This document shows, piece after piece, positions 4,728 through 31,249 of a stretch of DNA of 32,000 nucleotides. A model generated the notes under the pieces. The model searched no databases, was not told the DNA's origin, and saw nothing but the letters and a program-made list of their open reading frames with translations. Each line of letters begins with the position of its first letter. The first letter of the stretch is position 1. The stretch is from Candidatus Saccharimonadota bacterium (GTDB taxonomy: Bacteria; Patescibacteriota; Saccharimonadia; Saccharimonadales; UBA4665). The stretch is taken from contig CP025011.1 in NCBI GenBank assembly GCA_002952755.1, positions 30,001 through 62,000 of the forward strand. The letters are read 5' to 3'. The position numbers and the translations under genes were made by a program.

Positions 4728-4769
4728 TGTTTGTAGGCAAAACTACACCACGCATATAGTGTCCGTGAT

Positions 4770-4778
4770 TGCTATAGT
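4770..4778 (+). promoter_or_regulatory. extended -10 promoter (TGcTATAGT) for the riboswitch leader
   Basis: TGCTATAGT lies at 4770-4778, about 25 nt upstream of the conserved riboswitch core. Confidence 0.4.
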
Positions 4779-4784
4779 TAAAGA

Positions 4785-4952
4785 TAGTTAACAACCAAAA
4801 ATGCTGGAAGCGAGTGAGAATCTCGCACTGTGCCGCAACGGTAATTCTGTATACAGATAAGTCCGATACAGCAATAAACCATTCGTTCCCGAGCAGGAAA
4901 TGGCTATGCTGTAACCGCATACCTGCTCTTTTCGAACAAGAGCAGGTATTTT
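4785..4952 (+). promoter_or_regulatory. cobalamin riboswitch-like leader (short class) with a terminator/antiterminator expression platform
   Basis: Positions 4806-4844 read GGAAGCGAGTGAGAATCTCGCACTGTGCCGCAACGGTAA. This parallels the conserved Cbl core, for example the E. coli btuB leader GGGAAUCCAGUGCGAAUCUGGAGCUGACGCGCAGCGGUAAGGA. A hairpin TCTGTATACAGA follows at 4846-4857. AAGTCCGATACAGCA at 4859-4873 compares with AAGCCCGAAGACCUGCC. GCTG at 4803-4806 pairs with CAGC at 4869-4872. GAGCAGG at 4891-4897 can pair with CCTGCTC at 4922-4928, which is the 5' arm of the terminator. Confidence 0.7.
4921..4952 (+). terminator. rho-independent terminator forming the riboswitch expression platform
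   Basis: A 10-bp perfect stem (ACCTGCTCTT at 4921-4930 with AAGAGCAGGT at 4938-4947) encloses the loop TTCGAAC and is followed by ATTTT. It ends 3 nt before the ATG at 4955. Confidence 0.7.
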
Positions 4953-4954
4953 AG

Positions 4955-6481
4955 ATGAAAGAAGTTCCTCCCGGACCTGTGTTACCTGAGATTGGAGCAG
5001 ATCAACCGCCTTTTGCTCTATTAGCTCGGGATCTGATAAGCGAACAGGCAGCACAGCTGGCTTATAAGACGCGCTTCATAGGCGCGGCCGCCACATCTGA
5101 GATAGTTGAATGTGACACTCCTGCTGATGTTGAAGGAGGCGTGACGCTTGCCGAGGCATTATCGAGCAGTCTTGAGGGTGACGAAGACGCTACAGGAATT
5201 GTACGTCTCGCGGTAAAGACGGCTGTCTTAGAAGCAGTGTTTAAGGATAAACACATTACTCGAGTAGAGCGTGAACGTAATGAAGTAGGACAGATAGTAC
5301 AATATGGACTTACTTCAGAGCAGATGCACTACAATTCGCTTGTCCTGCGACCGGGTAGGCACGAATTACTCCAAGAGCACACCAAAGCCGAGGCGTTGAA
5401 TGGCTATCGTGAAGAGGAGGCTATGCGTGAGGGACTTCTCAAAGAATATGCGATGGTAGTCTGCTCTGGTGTGGCCCAAGATCTGCCCGAGAAACTGCTT
5501 GACCACCGTGGCGAAGGCTACTTTTTGCATGAGATGACCTATTGCATACAAAGCACCACCGACGAGGGCGACATAATGACCGAGACAGCCTTTATGGCAG
5601 GCACCGATGCTCCTGAAGATGCGACTTTTGATGAGCGAATAGCACAGCGTTTTGATATTGAAGTATTTGGGATGGTCTACGAATGGCTGGGGCTTGAGGC
5701 GCCGAAGACGGTTCTCGAGTTCCTACGGAATCCAGTATTCATTCATAAGAGCTTGATGCCGAATGGTGTTGTAGACTTCGTGCGCTGGTGCAACCAAGCC
5801 AAAGATATCTTGCGGGGTCGAGAGGTTGAGCAACCTATCGAACAATATATCCAAATGCTTGCAAAATCTGCGGAGCGTGAGGCCAGTATGGATGTAACCG
5901 TGGATAAGGTTATGCAGAAGTTGTTCAGCTATGCCGGGACGTTTAAGAATCCGAAAGAGGCCAACGATTTGTTATGGGAGCTAGTTAAGGACTATACCGT
6001 TGAAGCATCTGTTACGAATTTGAATATTAACCTAAACGTATTCGGCCCGCAAGCTCAAGTACGACTCGAGAAGGCTCGAAATTATGCAGCCCAGGGCGAT
6101 TTCGTTAATATGGAACGCTGGCTTATAAGCGGACATCGCTTTGCAGTTGTGAGCGGCTGCGGAGGTGGATCGCCAACCGAAATGCAAGATATGCTCGATG
6201 CGCGCCGTGCTGGGAGTGGCGATACGGACGAAACTTGGCATGGTGGGGAAATACACAAAAACGAGAAATGTAACTCTTGCAAGATTGTCAAACCTGAGGT
6301 AGGGAAATGTCATATATGCTGGGACTGTATGCAGCACCCGGCAATAATGGAGGCTACCTATAAGCGCGAGCAAGCCGAAAAGGGGCGTTCTAAGGGCCTA
6401 GTGGCAATTATCGCAGAGCGCGTTAGTAATCTGGCTATAAAAGCGGAGCCTGGCATAAGTGGTAGTCGGCAAATGTTTTAG
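4955..6481 (+). CDS. hypothetical protein, 508 aa, acidic and soluble, with a C-terminal CxxC-x10-CxxCxxC cluster
   Basis: This is a long ORF with no competing frame and no TM segment. The motifs are VVSGCGGGSP and CNSCKIVKPEVGKCHICWDC (codons 6269-6328). I recognise no family. Confidence 0.6.
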   Translation: MKEVPPGPVLPEIGADQPPFALLARDLISEQAAQLAYKTRFIGAAATSEIVECDTPADVEGGVTLAEALSSSLEGDEDATGIVRLAVKTAVLEAVFKDKHITRVERERNEVGQIVQYGLTSEQMHYNSLVLRPGRHELLQEHTKAEALNGYREEEAMREGLLKEYAMVVCSGVAQDLPEKLLDHRGEGYFLHEMTYCIQSTTDEGDIMTETAFMAGTDAPEDATFDERIAQRFDIEVFGMVYEWLGLEAPKTVLEFLRNPVFIHKSLMPNGVVDFVRWCNQAKDILRGREVEQPIEQYIQMLAKSAEREASMDVTVDKVMQKLFSYAGTFKNPKEANDLLWELVKDYTVEASVTNLNINLNVFGPQAQVRLEKARNYAAQGDFVNMERWLISGHRFAVVSGCGGGSPTEMQDMLDARRAGSGDTDETWHGGEIHKNEKCNSCKIVKPEVGKCHICWDCMQHPAIMEATYKREQAEKGRSKGLVAIIAERVSNLAIKAEPGISGSRQMF

Positions 6482-6511
6482 TTGACAAGCATAAGCTTGG
6501 GCTGATATCAT
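6482..6511 (+). promoter_or_regulatory. candidate sigma70-type promoter with no downstream CDS
   Basis: TTGACA (6482-6487), an 18-nt spacer and TATCAT (6506-6511) begin 1 nt after the stop of the 508-aa gene. The promoter points into the 880-bp non-coding region. Confidence 0.4.
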
Positions 6512-6760
6512 TTCCGTTACTTCTGTGGGTGACCACTGAAAGACAAACATGTGTGAATAAAAAACAAAAATAAAGCAAGTATAGTGTTGGCTTTTGAGAG
6601 ACCGCCTTTTACTGCTTTTAGGGAGACAAAACATGTCCGTCAAAATAAAAATTGTACCTTCCAGGCCAGCCCGGGTGCCAGTTACCGTGCGGCGGCCGTC
6701 CTGGCGCGAGTTTCTAAACTACTAACTTCGTCTCATCCAACTGTTTATAAAGACCTACTC

Positions 6761-7010
6761 TCGTATCCTCACTCTCCTCAATAATTCCCAACCGTGGCCC
6801 GCGATCTCTATACGTCACTTTTTGTCCCGCAAAAAGGAACCAAAAACTCCCCAAGGCAAACGTAAAACACTACTGGAAAATACCCCGCACAGCATCTTCG
6901 CTGCGGAACTCGCCCTTGATTGGGCTCAAACAGTCCTCGCTCTTAATCGGCTGCGCTCTGGCATTTTCGAATCAGTTTTACTACAGGCCCCGAACCCCGT
7001 CGGAGATGGA
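6761..7010. repeat. left arm of a ~560-bp imperfect palindrome
   Basis: The arm is collinear with the reverse complement of 7067-7320. Block matches are 6774-6787 vs 7287-7300 (13/14), 6826-6847 vs 7224-7247, 6901-6914 vs 7154-7167 (14/14), 6923-6939 vs 7134-7150 (17/17) and 6973-6995 vs 7079-7100. It contains the hairpin CTTTTTG-tcccg-CAAAAAG at 6818-6836. Confidence 0.8.
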
Positions 7011-7066
7011 ATGCTAGAAACTAAAGTCCTTGAGTGTTTACTGAGCAAGCTTCAATCGCAGGATTA

Positions 7067-7320
7067 GATATCCGAGTAGTTCGGCCGTAATGGAAAACCG
7101 ATTAGCTGCAGGGCATTCCTGATCGGATACAGCCGAGGACTGTTTGAGCCGAAGGCGAGTTCCGCAGGCTCGTTCAGGAATGCCCTGCAGCTAGTAGGCT
7201 TTTTCATTTCCCCAGGCCGAGAGGTTTTTCGGTTCCTTTTTTGTGGGAAAAAAGGAACATTGAAGAGATTGCAATTCGCGGCCACAGAATTACTGAGGAG
7301 ATCTGGTATACAGGATCGTT
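7067..7320. repeat. right arm of the ~560-bp imperfect palindrome
   Basis: See the left arm for the block matches. This arm contains the hairpin GTTCCTTTTTT-gtggg-AAAAAAGGAAC (7232-7258, 11 bp perfect) and the long hairpin at 7105-7191. Confidence 0.8.
7105..7191. repeat. long hairpin E3: 18-bp perfect stem around a 51-nt loop
   Basis: GCTGCAGGGCATTCCTGA (7105-7122) pairs with TCAGGAATGCCCTGCAGC (7174-7191). The loop TCGGATACAGCCGAGGACTGTTTGAGCCGAAGGCGAGTTCCGCAGGCTCGT loosely resembles the E1/E2 core in layout. The left-arm counterpart has a degenerate stem. Confidence 0.75.
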
Positions 7321-7360
7321 CATGACTTTTGGAGTCAAGGTGGGAGGACAAGGACGGAAG

Positions 7361-7996
7361 CTAGCTCTGTGACTTAGCCTTCAACTCGGCATCAATATAC
7401 TTACTGAATGTATCTATAGTGAAATCTGGCGTGATCTTTTTGCCATCAAGCAAAAAGGTTGGTGTTGATTCTTCATTGCCGGTTTTTAAGAAGTCGGCAA
7501 TGTCTTTGTTGATGGCGTCGTTTACTTGGCTGGATGCGGCATCGATTTTAAATTGATTTACATTCAGTTTAAGTGCCGAGGCGTATTGGTTGAAGACATC
7601 TTGGGCATTGCTGCTTTCGCTCCAGGCTGATTGATTCTCGTACAGCAAATCGTGCATCTGCCAGTACTTGCCTTGCAGACCTGCTGCCTCAGCAACGCGG
7701 GCGGCAGCGAACGCGTTCTGGTGGACCTGACTTAAGGGTAGATTACGGAATTGGAAAACGATCTTATCGTTGTATTTTTGCTGCACCTGCTTAACTACGG
7801 GAGAAAACTGGCCGCAATATGGACACTGATAATCACCGAATTCGACGAGAGTTACCCCGGCCGGGCTGGTACCGATGAGGTGACTGCCAGGCTTGCCGCT
7901 GGCATTCGTCGGTGCATTCGCCCTGCCCTTAAAGAACAAAATACCACCAAAAATAACTATGATAGCGGCGATGATCGCCCAAAAACTTTTACTCAT
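7361..7996 (-). CDS. DsbA-family thiol:disulfide oxidoreductase, membrane-anchored
   Basis: It has the thioredoxin-fold motif GDYQCPYCGQF and an N-terminal anchor MSKSFWAIIAAIIVIFGGILFF. The longer track ORF (to 8257) adds 87 aa of implausible sequence that overlaps the divergent gene. Confidence 0.85.
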   Translation of the reverse strand: MSKSFWAIIAAIIVIFGGILFFKGRANAPTNASGKPGSHLIGTSPAGVTLVEFGDYQCPYCGQFSPVVKQVQQKYNDKIVFQFRNLPLSQVHQNAFAAARVAEAAGLQGKYWQMHDLLYENQSAWSESSNAQDVFNQYASALKLNVNQFKIDAASSQVNDAINKDIADFLKTGNEESTPTFLLDGKKITPDFTIDTFSKYIDAELKAKSQS

Positions 7997-20663: not shown

Positions 20664-20770
20664 GATACCCCGCTCTCTCACTCCGAGCAGAGTCAGGCGT
20701 AGTGCAGCCAGACCGACTTTTAGTCGGCCTGCGCGAAAACGCTCTGCTCGGAGTGAGAGAGCGGGGTATC
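20664..20770. repeat. hairpin element E1: 29-bp perfect stem around a conserved 49-nt core
   Basis: GATACCCCGCTCTCTCACTCCGAGCAGAG (20664-20692) pairs with CTCTGCTCGGAGTGAGAGAGCGGGGTATC (20742-20770). The core is TCAGGCGTAGTGCAGCCAGACCGACTTTTAGTCGGCCTGCGCGAAAACG. Confidence 0.9.
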
Positions 20771-21939: not shown

Positions 21940-22047
21940 GCGGCAACCCATCCCCTTGGCTGAGTAGAGTCAGGCATAGTGCAGCCAGACCGACTTTGGT
22001 CGGCCTGCGCGAAAACGCTCTACTCAGCCAAGGGGATGGGTTGCCGC
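21940..22047. repeat. hairpin element E2: 30-bp perfect stem around a conserved 48-nt core
   Basis: GCGGCAACCCATCCCCTTGGCTGAGTAGAG (21940-21969) pairs with CTCTACTCAGCCAAGGGGATGGGTTGCCGC (22018-22047). The core is TCAGGCATAGTGCAGCCAGACCGACTTTGGTCGGCCTGCGCGAAAACG. Confidence 0.9.
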
Positions 22048-22846: not shown

Positions 22847-23003
22847 CTTATGACCCCATCTCAAATCTCCCCTCCGCCCCAAACCACCCAGTTTCGGCCA
22901 AGATCTGCCCAGGCTGCGTCAGCGTACCCGTCGGTACACTTCCTTACCCTGAACAAATCTTGCCTCGAAACTGGACAATTTGACATCGAAGAGGAGGTTT
23001 GAG

Positions 23004-24131
23004 ATGGGGTCAATGAGTACATTCAAAAAGCAGTGGTTTACCGTGGGCGTTTTTGCGCGGCAAAGCACACGCCGCTTTTTCCGTGATCGTCTGGCGATCT
23101 TTTTTGGCATCTTGTTTCCGCTTATCTTCCTATTTGTATTCGGTGGAATTTTTGGCAAGGCGAGCGGCACCTCATTTAAGGTAGCGCTGTTGAATCAATC
23201 CAACACTGCGTCGGCACACAGCTTTGTAAGTGAAGCCGGCCATAGCAAGTTACTCAAAATAGACAAAACGATCACGACTATGGATAAGGCACAGGCCAAG
23301 ATGGTTCGCTCCCAGATTGACGCCACTATCGTGCTACCGCCAGATTTCGGCACCGTTAAGAAAGGACAAGCTTACCCTTCTGGTACGGCGTTGGTGGAAT
23401 ATACCCAAAATGGTCAGCAGGCCGGCCAAACGCTCACCTCAATTCTCGATGCCGAGTTTGTCGGTATGAACGGCAAGTATGTTTCAACCGTGACGCCCTT
23501 TAAGGCAGCGGGCAAACAGACGGTTAATAAAAGCCTGAGTCAGTTTGACTACACTTTTGCCGGGTTACTCGGTTTTTCGATCATCGGCATGGGCATTTTT
23601 GGTCCGATCAACGTATTCCCAGAGCTAAAGAAGCAGGGTATCTTGCGCCGCTTGCACACCACGCCGTTGCGCGTGTGGCAGTATTTTACGGCAACCATGA
23701 TTTCGCAAGCGATTGTCGGCTTAGTATCTCTGAGCGTGATGTTCGCGGTGGCGATCGGTGTCTTTCATCTGCATGTGGTGGGCAACTGGCTACTGATCGC
23801 TGCGTGGTTGGTCTTTAGTATTGTGATGATTCTCGGGATTGGCTTATCGATTGGCGGTTGGGCCAAGAATGAACGTCAGGCAGCGCCGTTGTCAAACATC
23901 ATCGTATTTCCAATGCTGTTCTTAAGCGGTACCTTCTTCCCGCGTTTCTTGATGCCCGAATGGCTGCAGAATGCCACCGCGTACCTGCCCCTTACTCCAG
24001 TGATTGATGGGATCCGATTGATCACCACTGAAGGTAAAGGTGTTATGGATTTGCTCTCTCAGCTCGGAATTATGGCCGGCTGGACAGTCATCATTTACCT
24101 CATCGCGTTCCGTGTATTCCGTTGGGAGTAA
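23004..24131 (+). CDS. ABC-2 type transporter permease
   Basis: It has six or so TM helices and a large first extracytoplasmic loop. An SD GAGGAGG lies 6 nt before the ATG at 23004; the track's TTG at 22980 is less likely. Confidence 0.8.
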   Translation: MGSMSTFKKQWFTVGVFARQSTRRFFRDRLAIFFGILFPLIFLFVFGGIFGKASGTSFKVALLNQSNTASAHSFVSEAGHSKLLKIDKTITTMDKAQAKMVRSQIDATIVLPPDFGTVKKGQAYPSGTALVEYTQNGQQAGQTLTSILDAEFVGMNGKYVSTVTPFKAAGKQTVNKSLSQFDYTFAGLLGFSIIGMGIFGPINVFPELKKQGILRRLHTTPLRVWQYFTATMISQAIVGLVSLSVMFAVAIGVFHLHVVGNWLLIAAWLVFSIVMILGIGLSIGGWAKNERQAAPLSNIIVFPMLFLSGTFFPRFLMPEWLQNATAYLPLTPVIDGIRLITTEGKGVMDLLSQLGIMAGWTVIIYLIAFRVFRWE

Positions 24132-29872: not shown

Positions 29873-29947
29873 CGCGGGGTGGAGCAGCGGCAGCTCGCGT
29901 GGCTCATAACCACGAGGTCAGAGGTTCGAGTCCTCTCCCCGCAACCA
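29873..29947 (+). tRNA. initiator tRNA-fMet (CAU), CCA encoded
   Basis: The sequence reads CGCGGGG-TG-GAGC-AGCGGCA-GCTC-G-CGTGG-CTCATAA-CCACG-AGGTC-AGAGG-TTCGAGT-CCTCT-CCCCGCA-A-CCA. The C1/A72 mismatch and A11:U24 pair are bacterial initiator hallmarks. The anticodon stem has U29:A41 instead of the first of the three G:C pairs. Confidence 0.9.
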
Positions 29948-30033
29948 AGTTGAAATAACAAATAGAGATTCGTCATATGACGAATCTCTATTTCTTGTCG
30001 CCTCTGTACATTAGGTTTCAGTCCTGTTAGGTC
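29946..30033 (+). repeat. direct repeat copy A (terminator plus conserved 28-mer)
   Basis: CAAGTTGAAATAACAAATAGAGATTCG..CGCCTCTGTACATTAGGTTTCAGTCCTGTTAGGTC aligns with 31164-31247. It starts inside the CCA end of tRNA-fMet. Confidence 0.85.
29960..29997 (+). terminator. rho-independent terminator downstream of tRNA-fMet
   Basis: A 14-bp stem (AAATAGAGATTCGT / ACGAATCTCTATTT) encloses the loop CATATG and runs into TTTCTT. Confidence 0.7.
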
Positions 30034-30046
30034 TTATTATTCTCCT

Positions 30047-30523
30047 ATGACGCGCGATTATTACCATGTCCAAGAATGGACTCCAAAACTCAAAGCCACA
30101 GGGGACGAACTGGTGGCCAAGATTCATGAAGCAACGCCAGAGCTCGAGGTGCTGTTTATGGGCGCAGCTGCCCTCGGGTTGCCCGGTAAGAACGACATAG
30201 ATCTGGATATTCTATGTAGCCAAAATAATTTAAAGCGATATGTGGAGGTGTTAACGCCAGTGCTAGGTGCTCCGCAAGGGCTGAAAGAAAATATGGCTGC
30301 CTGGAGCTATATGGATGGCGATATCGAAATCGATTGCATCTTGTCAGATCCTACACTGCCGGCATCCCATATTCCGAAGCAAAAGAAAATGTTTGAAACG
30401 CTCAAAGCGAGTCCGGAACTCCAATCACGCTATGCGCAGCTAAAGCGTGATTGTGATGGGCTGCCATATGCGGATTATGAAGCCAAGAAAAAAGCATTCT
30501 TTGAGGAAGTCGAGGCTTTATAG
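30047..30523 (+). CDS. GrpB-like / nucleotidyltransferase-fold protein
   Basis: FMGAAALGLPGKNDIDLDIL is a G-x-D-x-D NTase-type motif. The C-terminal YAQLKRDCDGLPYADYEAKKKAFFEEV resembles GrpB family tails. Confidence 0.55.
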   Translation: MTRDYYHVQEWTPKLKATGDELVAKIHEATPELEVLFMGAAALGLPGKNDIDLDILCSQNNLKRYVEVLTPVLGAPQGLKENMAAWSYMDGDIEIDCILSDPTLPASHIPKQKKMFETLKASPELQSRYAQLKRDCDGLPYADYEAKKKAFFEEVEAL

Positions 30524-31086
30524 TGCGCCAATCAAAAGTCATCTTATTACATGGTAAAGACAAAGACTCTAGTTTTATCTGGTACCCTTGGCTCAAACAG
30601 GAGTTGGCAAACAAGGGCATTCAGTGCGATATTCCAGATTTGCCACAGGCCGATAACCCAAAAATAAATGAGTGGTTGAGTGTGATTGACTCGCTAAAAC
30701 CTGATGCTGATACAACTTTAGTAGGTCACTCAAGAGGTGGAATGGCAATACTGAGGTGGGTTGAAAGTCGGCAGCAGCATGTACGGCGGGTGATATTGGT
30801 TGCGGCCAACAGCGCCACCATTACGGACGATAACACAAGCGATTTTTATTCTGGCCTGTATGATTTTGCCACGATTCGAGACTGCTGTGACGAGTTTGTG
30901 GTTATGCATTCTAAGGATGATGAATGGGTGCCGTATGCTGCTGGGCTCGAAAATACAGAAGGTCTTAACGCTAGATTGATTAGCTTCGAAAACCGTGCTC
31001 ACTTCGGGAAGCAAGCCGATGGCACTATGATGACTACGTTCCCCGAGCTTCTAAACGAGATATCAGGTTCTAGCGTGGAGCGGTAG
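30523..31086 (+). CDS. alpha/beta serine hydrolase (YdeN/RBBP9-like family)
   Basis: It has VILLHGKD, the nucleophile elbow VGHSRGG and later D and H residues (HSKDDEWVP, RAHFG). The GTG start overlaps the upstream stop as TAGTG. Confidence 0.7.
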   Translation: MRQSKVILLHGKDKDSSFIWYPWLKQELANKGIQCDIPDLPQADNPKINEWLSVIDSLKPDADTTLVGHSRGGMAILRWVESRQQHVRRVILVAANSATITDDNTSDFYSGLYDFATIRDCCDEFVVMHSKDDEWVPYAAGLENTEGLNARLISFENRAHFGKQADGTMMTTFPELLNEISGSSVER

Positions 31087-31163
31087 AGCAATTGACCGAT
31101 AGCCTGCCTCTGTAGAGTGTCGTTTCCAACGATATGGTTCCGATTCGATTATACTTGGGCGAT

Positions 31164-31247
31164 CAAGTTGAAATAACAGATAGAGATTCGCTTTACGGCG
31201 AGTCTCTTTTTTCGCCTCTGTACATTAGGTTTCAGTCCTGCTTGGCC
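31164..31247 (+). repeat. direct repeat copy B
   Basis: CAAGTTGAAATAACAGATAGAGATTCG..CGCCTCTGTACATTAGGTTTCAGTCCTGCTTGGCC. The 28-mer CGCCTCTGTACATTAGGTTTCAGTCCTG is identical to copy A. The terminator stem differs by compensatory changes. Confidence 0.85.
31182..31212 (+). terminator. rho-independent terminator downstream of the hydrolase gene
   Basis: AGAGATTCGC pairs with GCGAGTCTCT (10 bp, one G-T) around the loop TTTACG, followed by TTTTTT. Confidence 0.7.
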
Positions 31248-31249
31248 TT

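Follow-up and report, generated by a model that had tools for sequence, protein, structure and literature searches.

A composite palindromic repeat between two convergent genes of a Saccharimonadota genome and its cross-phylum family

Gene context of the insertion

The sequence analysed here, referred to as the window, is a stretch of 32,000 nucleotides from the genome of a Candidatus Saccharimonadota bacterium (assembly GCA_002952755.1, contig CP025011.1, positions 30,001 to 62,000), and the element in question is a 635-bp palindrome at window positions 6726-7360. This element is without coding capacity, is inserted between two convergent stop codons and belongs to a multi-copy, cross-phylum family whose members share the architecture of their arms. 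The region 6482-7360, which had been regarded as a single gene-free unit built around a palindrome (the original prediction), is composed of two unrelated parts: a small transcription unit (6482-6725) and the non-coding repeat copy (6726-7360). The genes and signals bordering the element are as follows:

6482-6511, + strand: sigma-70-like promoter TTGACA-18-TATCAT, TG-extended (pattern scan, 11/12 matches).
6633-6725, + strand: open reading frame (ORF) of 30 amino acids (aa), MSVKIKIVPSRPARVPVTVRRPSWREFLNY, with the ribosome-binding site AGGGAGA at 6620-6626.
7361-7996, - strand: dsbA-like thioredoxin-fold gene of 211 aa, the stop codon of which adjoins the element (Pfam Thioredoxin_4 7e-27, DSBA 1e-13).

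The claim that 6482-7360 contains no credible coding sequence has to be abandoned, as the 30-aa ORF has a ribosome-binding site and its reading frame is kept in four relatives (L003, L005, L007 and L135), where its syntenic homologues end in ...WREFL(N/T/H)Y*. The segment 6633-6726 is 71% conserved with relatives according to blastn, and no Pfam or NCBIfam family was matched by the ORF, which adds to the window a conserved gene probably overlooked by gene callers. The promoter, described earlier as an orphan pointing into the region, is located within a block conserved with L003 (6482-6568), and TTGACA...TGATATCAT is present at the equivalent place in L135. Being situated upstream of the 30-aa ORF and outside the palindrome, it is predicted to serve this ORF.

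Five relatives were found via homologues of the 508-aa protein encoded at 4955-6481. In all of them (L003/4, L005/6, L007, L135 and L136) the gene order is kept, successively: GtrA, LexA-like, 508 aa, small ORF and convergent dsbA. The C-terminus of the dsbA-like protein aligns with the relatives through to the stop codon, and within 6482-7360 their counterparts are limited to 6482-6568 and 6633-6726. The stop codons of the small ORF and dsbA overlap in L003 (TTACTGA) and are separated by 2 nt in L135, which is the closest relative, and by a short terminator in L005; in the present genome 635 bp lie between them, spanning precisely from the TAA of the small ORF to the TAG of dsbA. No arm of the palindrome was detected in L003, L005 and L007 by the covariance model R1 (see below), or in these three, L135 and L136 by an nhmmer arm profile. 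The comparison of the DsbA-flanking region across relatives, suggested in the original prediction in order to see whether one or both arms are present, thus reveals conserved outer blocks and neither arm in the five relatives. Since the stop codons of these relatives overlap or have only a short spacer between them and the palindrome fills the gap exactly, 6726-7360 is an insertion. Its junctions (ACTA/A...C/TAGC) would permit a target-site duplication of TA or CTAR, and the empty site of L135 reads TAA-TA-TTA; the insertion possibly took place at TA or CTAG.

A terminator-like pattern is present on the + strand of the right half of the element, where a hairpin (scan stem 7184-7198) is followed by CTTTTTCATT, through 7208. 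On this strand the G+C-rich hairpin 7094-7202 stands directly before a U-run, as is characteristic of intrinsic terminators, and no equivalent terminator was found on the - strand for dsbA. Judged by this pattern, the right-arm hairpin with its T-run probably now ends + strand transcription that arrives from the small ORF and the 508-aa gene. Immediately upstream of the 508-aa gene, a cobalamin riboswitch has been identified at 4753-4889 (32.0 bits; gathering score 31.5), and sub-threshold AdoCbl matches occur at the equivalent place in L005 (4820-4976) and L007 (4976-5067). The 508-aa protein, for which 18 homologues were found, has no Pfam domain and carries a C-terminal CxxC...CxxC motif; its gene could be B12-regulated.

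Arm architecture, core motif and related copies

The inverted homology between the two halves of the element reaches both ends of the gap, at 6726 (CTTCGTC...) and at 7360 (reverse complement CTTCCGTC...). A global inverted alignment of arm against arm gives 80% identity over aligned columns, with 81 gap columns. The local alignment of 6726-7040 with the reverse complement of 7041-7360 scores 64, compared to 19.4 +/- 2.7 for dinucleotide shuffles (z = 16.8), and z is still 9.6 when the two core blocks are masked. The palindrome is therefore real, but the limits first given for it (6761-7320) were too narrow. Its predicted details were borne out by the analysis: the 14/14 block (6901-6914 / 7154-7167), the 17/17 block (6923-6939 / 7134-7150), the A/T hairpins at 6818-6836 and 7232-7258, the AAGCTT at 7047-7052 and the 18-bp perfect stem with a 51-nt loop (7105-7122 / 7174-7191), the last of these being nested within a 32-nt stem of 88% complementarity (7094-7125 / 7171-7202). 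The left-arm stem is indeed decayed, since its fold is no better than that of shuffles (z = +0.3 and -0.9); for the right arm, z is -6.3 and -6.9 on the two strands. The parts of the element are listed below:

6726-7360, no strand assigned: whole composite palindromic insertion, consisting of two inverted arms and a centre (inverted alignment, absence in relatives).
6726-7040, + strand: left arm, with the forward strand of the module on +, decayed (fold z = +0.28 on +, -0.87 on -).
6818-6848, + strand: left H2 hairpin CTTTTTG/CAAAAAG, then the A-rich linker GGAACCAAAAAC (nhmmer match 6818-6846).
6881-6960, + strand: left core domain with CTGCGGAACTCGCC (6901-6914), the mini-hairpin GCCC-TTGATT-GGGC (6912-6925) and GGCTCAAACAGTCCTCG (6923-6939).
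7041-7093, no strand assigned: right-hand part of the poorly palindromic centre around the symmetry point (AAGCTT, 7047-7052).
7094-7202, - strand: long hairpin P1 of the right arm, with the core at its apex (inverted-repeat search, repeat I1, and folding).
7113-7187, - strand: right core domain with CTGCGGAACTCGCC (7167-7154), TTC and GGCTCAAACAGTCCTCG (7150-7134).
7203-7360, - strand: outer right arm with the block GAATTACTGAGGAGA (7287-7301) and the terminus ...GACGGAAG (repeat I5).
7217-7258, - strand: right H2 hairpin GTTCCTTTTTT/AAAAAAGGAAC (7232-7258) with the linker CGAAAAACC (repeat I8, 11/11 complementary).

Both the right arm and the Saccharimonadales arms L129-L134 described below show homology to the left arm throughout; the right H2 (nhmmer match 7258-7217) aligns to H2b of the same arms, and the GAATTACTGAGGAGA block of the outer right arm pairs with 6773-6787 (93%, repeat I5). 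The core domains were recognised by R1, a covariance model built from a 57-sequence alignment of the core region, with 58.7 bits (E = 4.5e-16) for the left and 62.5 bits (E = 3.1e-17) for the right domain. These are the only two R1 matches in the window, and neither blastn nor the covariance model nor nhmmer revealed further copies elsewhere in it. The two cores are identical in 31/31 positions, and the remaining arm sequence is 80% identical and indel-rich (P about 1e-3). Three Logan contigs of the same strain (L001, L002 and L128), identical to the window, end at 6867 and 6836 on the left and at ~7217 on the right. These ends fall just inside the arms, past H2, and leave the inner element unassembled, which fits repeats or sample heterogeneity.

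The arms of the family share a common order of components: (i) H2, a perfect hairpin whose 5' strand is rich in pyrimidines and whose 3' strand, rich in purines, ends in GGAAC or GTAAC; (ii) a C and an A-rich linker; (iii) a closing helix; (iv) sometimes a small G+C hairpin; (v) the long core hairpin. The same fold is common to the window, to two other Saccharibacteria-type contigs (L063 and L018), to a Thermodesulfobacteriota metagenome-assembled genome (MAG) and to beta- and gamma-Proteobacteria, and H2-plus-linker units like that of the left arm are found in arms of Saccharibacteria, Thermodesulfobacteriota and Proteobacteria. A triple helix formed by H2 and the linker was rejected, as the A-rich linker repeats the purine strand directly and not in mirror order.

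The 14-mer and the 17-mer each form one half of a single asymmetric core of ~40 nt located at the apex of the long hairpin, CTGC-GGAACTCGCC-(mini-hairpin, short G+C)-GGCTCAAACAG-TCCTCG. Its features are a bulged GGAAC, an internal loop of 2 nt on one side and 7 nt on the other (UC / UCAAACA) and the mini-hairpin, the length of which varies: across the family the half-cores are spaced by 4, 6, 7, 8, 10, 12 or 13 nt, with no 3n periodicity. The flanking stems are wholly different between lineages, yet complementary within each copy.

The pattern GGAACTCGCC-N(1-12)-GGCTCAAACAG was found at at least 120 loci in 596 Gb of GTDB genomes, compared to ~3 expected by chance according to our own calculation. 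The scan covered one genome per species and required an intact core, so that core divergence is under-sampled; among the matches listed, about 7 are without a hairpin and look like chance. The ~40 bases of the core are identical across at least 8 phyla, among them Pseudomonadota, Actinomycetota, Bacteroidota, Thermodesulfobacteriota, Omnitrophota and Patescibacteria. At lower rank, the carriers include Zoogloea, Thauera, Azospira, Comamonadaceae, Gallionella, Sulfuriferula, Cellvibrionales, Eggerthellaceae/Coriobacteriaceae, Bacteroidales (Geofilum, Parabacteroides), Polyangiaceae, Gastranaerophilales, Parcubacteria and Saccharibacteria. No core-bearing copies were found in 5,426 E. coli genomes. 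Many carrier genomes have numerous copies: Zoogloea dura has at least 14, the Thermodesulfobacteriota MAG (MAG169) at least 11 and an Omnitrophota MAG at least 5; the Saccharibacteria contig L063 contains two pairs within 8 kb, and many copies of the repeat sit at contig ends.

The search of the region against Rfam, proposed in the original prediction, matched no family: no model of Rfam 15 reached its gathering score for the repeat in the window, E values up to 10 on 6400-7450 returned only miRNA-like hairpin noise, and at the same threshold nothing overlapped the core motif in ten other loci. ARAGORN detected no tRNA or tmRNA in the region. Literature searches with the core sequence strings and with keywords on miniature inverted-repeat transposable elements (MITEs) and structured repeats returned only primers and unrelated papers, and neither PMC9012009 nor PMC3733652 concerns this element. 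The repeat family is apparently undescribed.

Where R1 matches lie within 1 kb of each other, they are convergent (+,-) in at least 28 places, belonging to at least 12 independent lineages including the window, divergent (-,+) in none and on the same strand in six (Geofilum-type tandem arrays, L030, L117). Oppositely oriented copies pair exclusively convergently, which is consistent with a unit that terminates at the outer arm ends. The pairs often mix two kinds of core, A (...GCC..GGCTCAAACAG) and B (...GTC/ACTC..CTCAGACAG), as in Zoogloea and L063; the window element is of the A type in both cores. In Zoogloea dura the copies are ~650 bp long and > 90% identical, consist of two inverted arms each and have clear terminal inverted repeats (TGTGCCTTTGCTGG...). 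Among otherwise > 90% identical copies (e.g. L008 vs L019) the ~100-bp centre occurs in either orientation, the result of flip-flop inversion between the inverted arms. Same-strand tandem units with ~120-360 bp spacing and partly degenerate cores, rather than convergent pairs, were observed in the Bacteroidota isolate Geofilum rhodophaeum (L081, L057 and L020).

Related arms were found by a metagenome scan with the window-specific H2 and core pattern, which revealed seven further places on six stretches (L129-L134). These are solo arms of ~290 nt with visibly high identity between loci (L133 equals L134 in the aligned stretch), a similarity that points to recent amplification in a related lineage. 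Solo arms, both in L129-L134 and in MAG169, are without terminal inverted repeats. In L132 (3691-6100), 2.1 kb lie between two convergent arms and contain three small genes, for a DUF5652 membrane protein, a protein of 132 aa and a helix-turn-helix protein of 210 aa. This pair lies between a SpoU methylase gene and hisS and may be a composite unit with cargo; its arm sequence gives the histidyl-tRNA synthetase ORF a false N-terminal extension.

Competing explanations for the element

The moderately favoured explanation is that a non-autonomous palindromic repeat, similar to MITEs or foldback elements, entered the locus long ago and that 6726-7360 is this copy, now decayed in part. The family would be selfish non-autonomous DNA, able to multiply within genomes and to cross phyla, and moved in trans by an enzyme encoded elsewhere. 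The core, exposed on a single-stranded hairpin, would be the part recognised by a protein, with single-stranded DNA being thought likelier than RNA, and the long stems would be kept complementary by intrastrand template switching (quasi-palindrome correction) instead of selection on RNA. The copy at this locus, presumed to have been mobile itself, would be old, its left arm having lost its hairpin. The head-to-head pair of non-autonomous elements named in the original prediction is thus the best-supported reading; the kinship of this pair to the window hairpins E1/E2 is not upheld, because their apex is unrelated.

Two sets of data bear on the level at which the stems are maintained. Isolated stem mismatches amount to 22 G:T, 26 A:C and 63 other in a strict count, and to 154 G:T vs 151 A:C in a loose one; as there is no excess of wobble pairs, the upkeep of the stems points to the DNA level. 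In Eggerthellaceae MAGs (L012, L015, L035 and L036), a conserved inner element of ~135 nt is enclosed within copy-specific perfect inverted repeats of 28-56 bp, which incorporate the last codons and the stop codon of adjacent genes. This pattern is accounted for only by inverted duplication or templated correction of local DNA, and not by compensatory substitution. An assembly artefact was rejected as the source of these flank-derived stems, since the palindrome ends after 28-56 bp and different genes follow beyond each side.

Several results weigh against the explanation as mobile DNA. (i) No autonomous element or mobilising enzyme was found in the loci examined. The window (32 kb) contains no transposase, none recurs beside or between the arms among the at least 120 loci listed, and no transposase is encoded in the interval flanked by the arms of L132. 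An all-against-all comparison of 1504 ORFs from 120 of these loci, based on simple ORF calls around the copies, revealed no partner gene; the largest cluster consists of spurious ORFs of the repeat itself, and clusters of real proteins represent only ubiquitous families (ABC ATPases, two-component, LysR and the like). (ii) No consistent target-site duplication was present at the window, L063 or Zoogloea junctions. (iii) The obvious vehicles for transfer between phyla gave nothing, with 0 exact matches to the core pattern in 2.9 million viral contigs and 0 blastn matches to the element in 72,556 plasmids. (iv) The 32 kb analysed show a single copy, and mobility in the lineage is deduced from relatives. 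(v) The identity of the cores amid drifted arms suggests purifying selection in place, which is unexpected for a dead relic. (vi) Two features are RNA-like: solo hairpins in small genomes of the candidate phyla radiation, such as the one between rpsH and rplF in L126, are co-oriented with the downstream gene in 11/12 cases, and a G.U at model pair 23:61, specific to the forward strand, is kept in 41/57 sequences. There is a simple alternative explanation for the orientation bias, as reverse-oriented hairpins precede U-runs and would terminate transcription inside operons.

The last two points lend themselves to a serious but doubtful rival, in which the arms are two convergent (or, seen from the centre, divergent) genes of a structured non-coding RNA belonging to a new widespread family, with the core loop as the functional site. 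The core would then serve a conserved cellular partner, and the multi-copy bursts would be secondary. This reading agrees with the constancy of the arm architecture across phyla while the stem sequence turns over fully, and with the covarying helices beside the core. In the 57-sequence alignment, seven core-adjacent pairs and an extension of the mini-hairpin covary, 74% of cells being paired vs 59.5% in shuffles; none of 500 shuffles reached this value (0/500), and the signal is maximal at slide 0. The perfect preservation of both window cores despite diverged arms, the strand-specific G.U pair and the co-orientation of solo hairpins in operons argue in the same direction, and the right arm, read on the + strand, finishes with a hairpin and U-run in the manner of a small RNA. 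Against it stands the pattern scan, which detected no sigma-70-like promoter directed into either arm or in the centre of the window element. The repeat has no Rfam counterpart at E values up to 10, the stem mismatches lack a G:U excess (22 vs 26), the left arm folds no better than shuffles and the locus is absent from the five relatives examined, the closest included. Moreover, the Zoogloea and L129-L134 copies resemble recent amplification, and perfect stems derived from flanks with stop codons are incompatible with compensatory evolution of RNA. The pair of convergent RNA genes put forward in the original prediction therefore retains some support in the covariation, the strict core and the orientation bias, and less than the non-autonomous pair.

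A more tentative proposal, considered rather unlikely, is that the core represents a new functional single-stranded nucleic-acid motif working via a universally conserved cellular machine. Candidate roles would be a self-cleaving or catalytic RNA, a NusB/NusE-type anti-polarity signal (boxA-like GGCUC...AACA) or a single-stranded DNA site for a housekeeping enzyme. A conserved partner of this kind would let a module without protein spread across bacterial phyla, and the copy-specific stems would be built from flanking DNA by fold-back or template-switch inverted duplication tied to the motif.

It is improbable that the palindrome is a cis-acting double-stranded DNA site of the host, such as a topological barrier or a cruciform-forming site of recombination, replication or segregation. 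Such a site would suit the length of the palindrome and the smaller palindromes nested in it, stems maintained at the DNA level and a central segment inverted between Zoogloea copies. The idea of a site specific to this locus is not supported, as the module occurs between genes in many settings unrelated to one another, and a single genome can have at least 14 copies; the half-core spacing of 4-13 nt is unlike a fixed duplex binding site, and the locus is dispensable in the relatives.

Far less credible still is that the arms encode small proteins, of 81 aa at 6822-7067 (+) and 95 aa at 7064-7351 (-). Both arm ORFs are open and read AELA in the same frame, and a similar 63-aa ORF extends across the arms of L130 and L132. 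However, neither arm ORF has a Pfam match, the frame of the left arm changes between the core blocks, the half-core spacing varies from 4 to 13 nt across the family, and 1-nt indels interrupt the 63-aa ORF among the close copies L129-L134. The similar peptides (KRNRKT, AELA and GSNSPR) are explained by conserved H2 and core nucleotides read in one frame. Conservation at the nucleotide and not the protein level, as originally proposed, is confirmed by related copies differing by 1-nt and other non-3n indels. Finally, a one-off local inverted duplication unrelated to anything elsewhere, which the single copy visible in the window might suggest, is the least probable of all explanations and is refuted by > 110 structured copies elsewhere with the same core and arm architecture.

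Relation to known systems and significance

Hairpin-forming bacterial MITEs include Correia/NEMIS of Neisseria, ERIC/IRU of enterobacteria, RUP and Nezha; they often lie between convergent genes and can act as terminators or RNA-processing sites. The element resembles them in being non-coding, intergenic and, as a family, multi-copy, in its size of a few hundred bp (635 bp, under ~700), in its terminal inverted homology, by which either strand folds back, and in a possible TA-type target. Unlike in MITEs, the inverted "ends" of the element are whole structured arms of ~200-300 bp, and its best-conserved part is an internal asymmetric core of ~40 nt instead of the termini. This core is identical over at least 8 phyla, whereas MITEs are not known to extend beyond a genus or family; in addition, no cognate insertion sequence was found for the element, and solo arms without terminal inverted repeats occur.

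Repetitive extragenic palindromes (REPs) and their composite forms (BIME, REPIN) are mobilised in trans by RAYT, an IS200/IS605-like HUH transposase encoded by a single-copy gene elsewhere. They are recognised as single-stranded DNA hairpins and have roles in termination and mRNA stability. With REPs and REPINs the element shares its nature of an extragenic palindrome, an inverted doublet and a multi-copy repeat. REPs are 20-40 nt long with a GTAG or CGTC head (PMC3733652). The element does not have this length, its core and stems carry no GTAG/CGTC head, and REPs are species-specific. An IS200/IS605-derived PATE, which has left- and right-end hairpins on the same strand and no terminal inverted repeats, was rejected for the composite copies, as the two arms of these are on opposite strands, with the (+,-) arrangement at no fewer than 28 places; solo arms might still belong to this kind.

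The attC sites of integrons, recognised as folded single strands, carry R'' (RYYYAAC) and R' (GTTRRRY) boxes complementary at the base of the hairpin. Likenesses to attC are the imperfect palindrome, the variable terminal hairpin, the unpaired or extrahelical bases and a conserved AAC triplet; differences are the far longer conserved sequence and the copy-specific outer stems of the element. The assignment was rejected, since GGAAC has no GTT partner (the 3' side is CAGTCC) and neither cassette arrays nor an integrase cluster or intI is present nearby, the copies within 8-kb loci being single or convergent pairs. In both orientations, the core also misfits hammerhead, twister, pistol, hatchet and hepatitis delta virus-like ribozymes, as well as signal recognition particle RNA, 6S RNA, Y RNA and RNase P segments and parS, dif, IHF and sigma-54 sites. 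For the hammerhead in particular, the reverse complement CUGUUUGAG...CGAGUU is without the invariant A6 and GAAA.

Other repeats of the window deserve separate mention. Two hairpins at 20664-20770 and 21940-22047, probably the E1/E2 of the original prediction, have perfect stems of 29-30 bp that are wholly different between the copies and an apex of ~65 nt that is 94% identical (GAGCAGAG-TCAGGCRTAGTGCAGCCAGA-CCGACTTTTAGTCGG-CCTGCGCGAAAACG-CTCTGCTC). Each is located directly after an intrinsic terminator and has no Rfam match. The element and E1/E2 are alike in possessing a conserved asymmetric apex with a mini-hairpin inside long copy-specific perfect stems; they differ in the apex itself, and E1/E2, each a lone hairpin, have neither H2 nor a linker nor an arm structure. 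Between ABC ATPase and permease genes lies an inverted repeat of 26 nt (22851-22876 / 22987-23012, 88%, 110-nt loop), the stem of which contains ATCTCAAATCTC, a sequence similar to the AATCTCA that is repeated where the L129-L134 arms end on their 3' side. Two small ORFs, 30047-30523 and 30523-31086, are bracketed by direct repeats (29941-30035 and 31159-31249) that are ~95 nt long, 1.2 kb apart and 81-90% identical. The first repeat begins at the 3' end of tRNA-Met (29873-29947), and the two repeats look like attachment (att) repeats of a small island integrated at a tRNA gene.

The distinctive trait of the family is a core of ~40 nt that is identical in at least 8 phyla, within a module that keeps its architecture but not its stem sequences. 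If undescribed, it would be a repeat with a functional core identical from Saccharibacteria to Zoogloea and Eggerthellaceae; comparable breadth is otherwise known only for ribozymes, introns and a few ends of insertion sequences. For annotation, the element accounts for assembly breaks, spurious ORFs and false N-terminal extensions. The finding raises the questions of which conserved partner reads the core, of how a module without protein crosses phyla though it was not found in the phage and plasmid collections searched, and of how long perfect copy-specific palindromes originate around a conserved apex, the last being posed by E1/E2 as well. As the carriers include several isolates in culture (Zoogloea dura G-4-1-14, Azospira oryzae DSM 21223, Spongiibacter marinus DSM 17750, Geofilum rhodophaeum and Sulfuriferula multivorans), these questions are within the reach of experiments.

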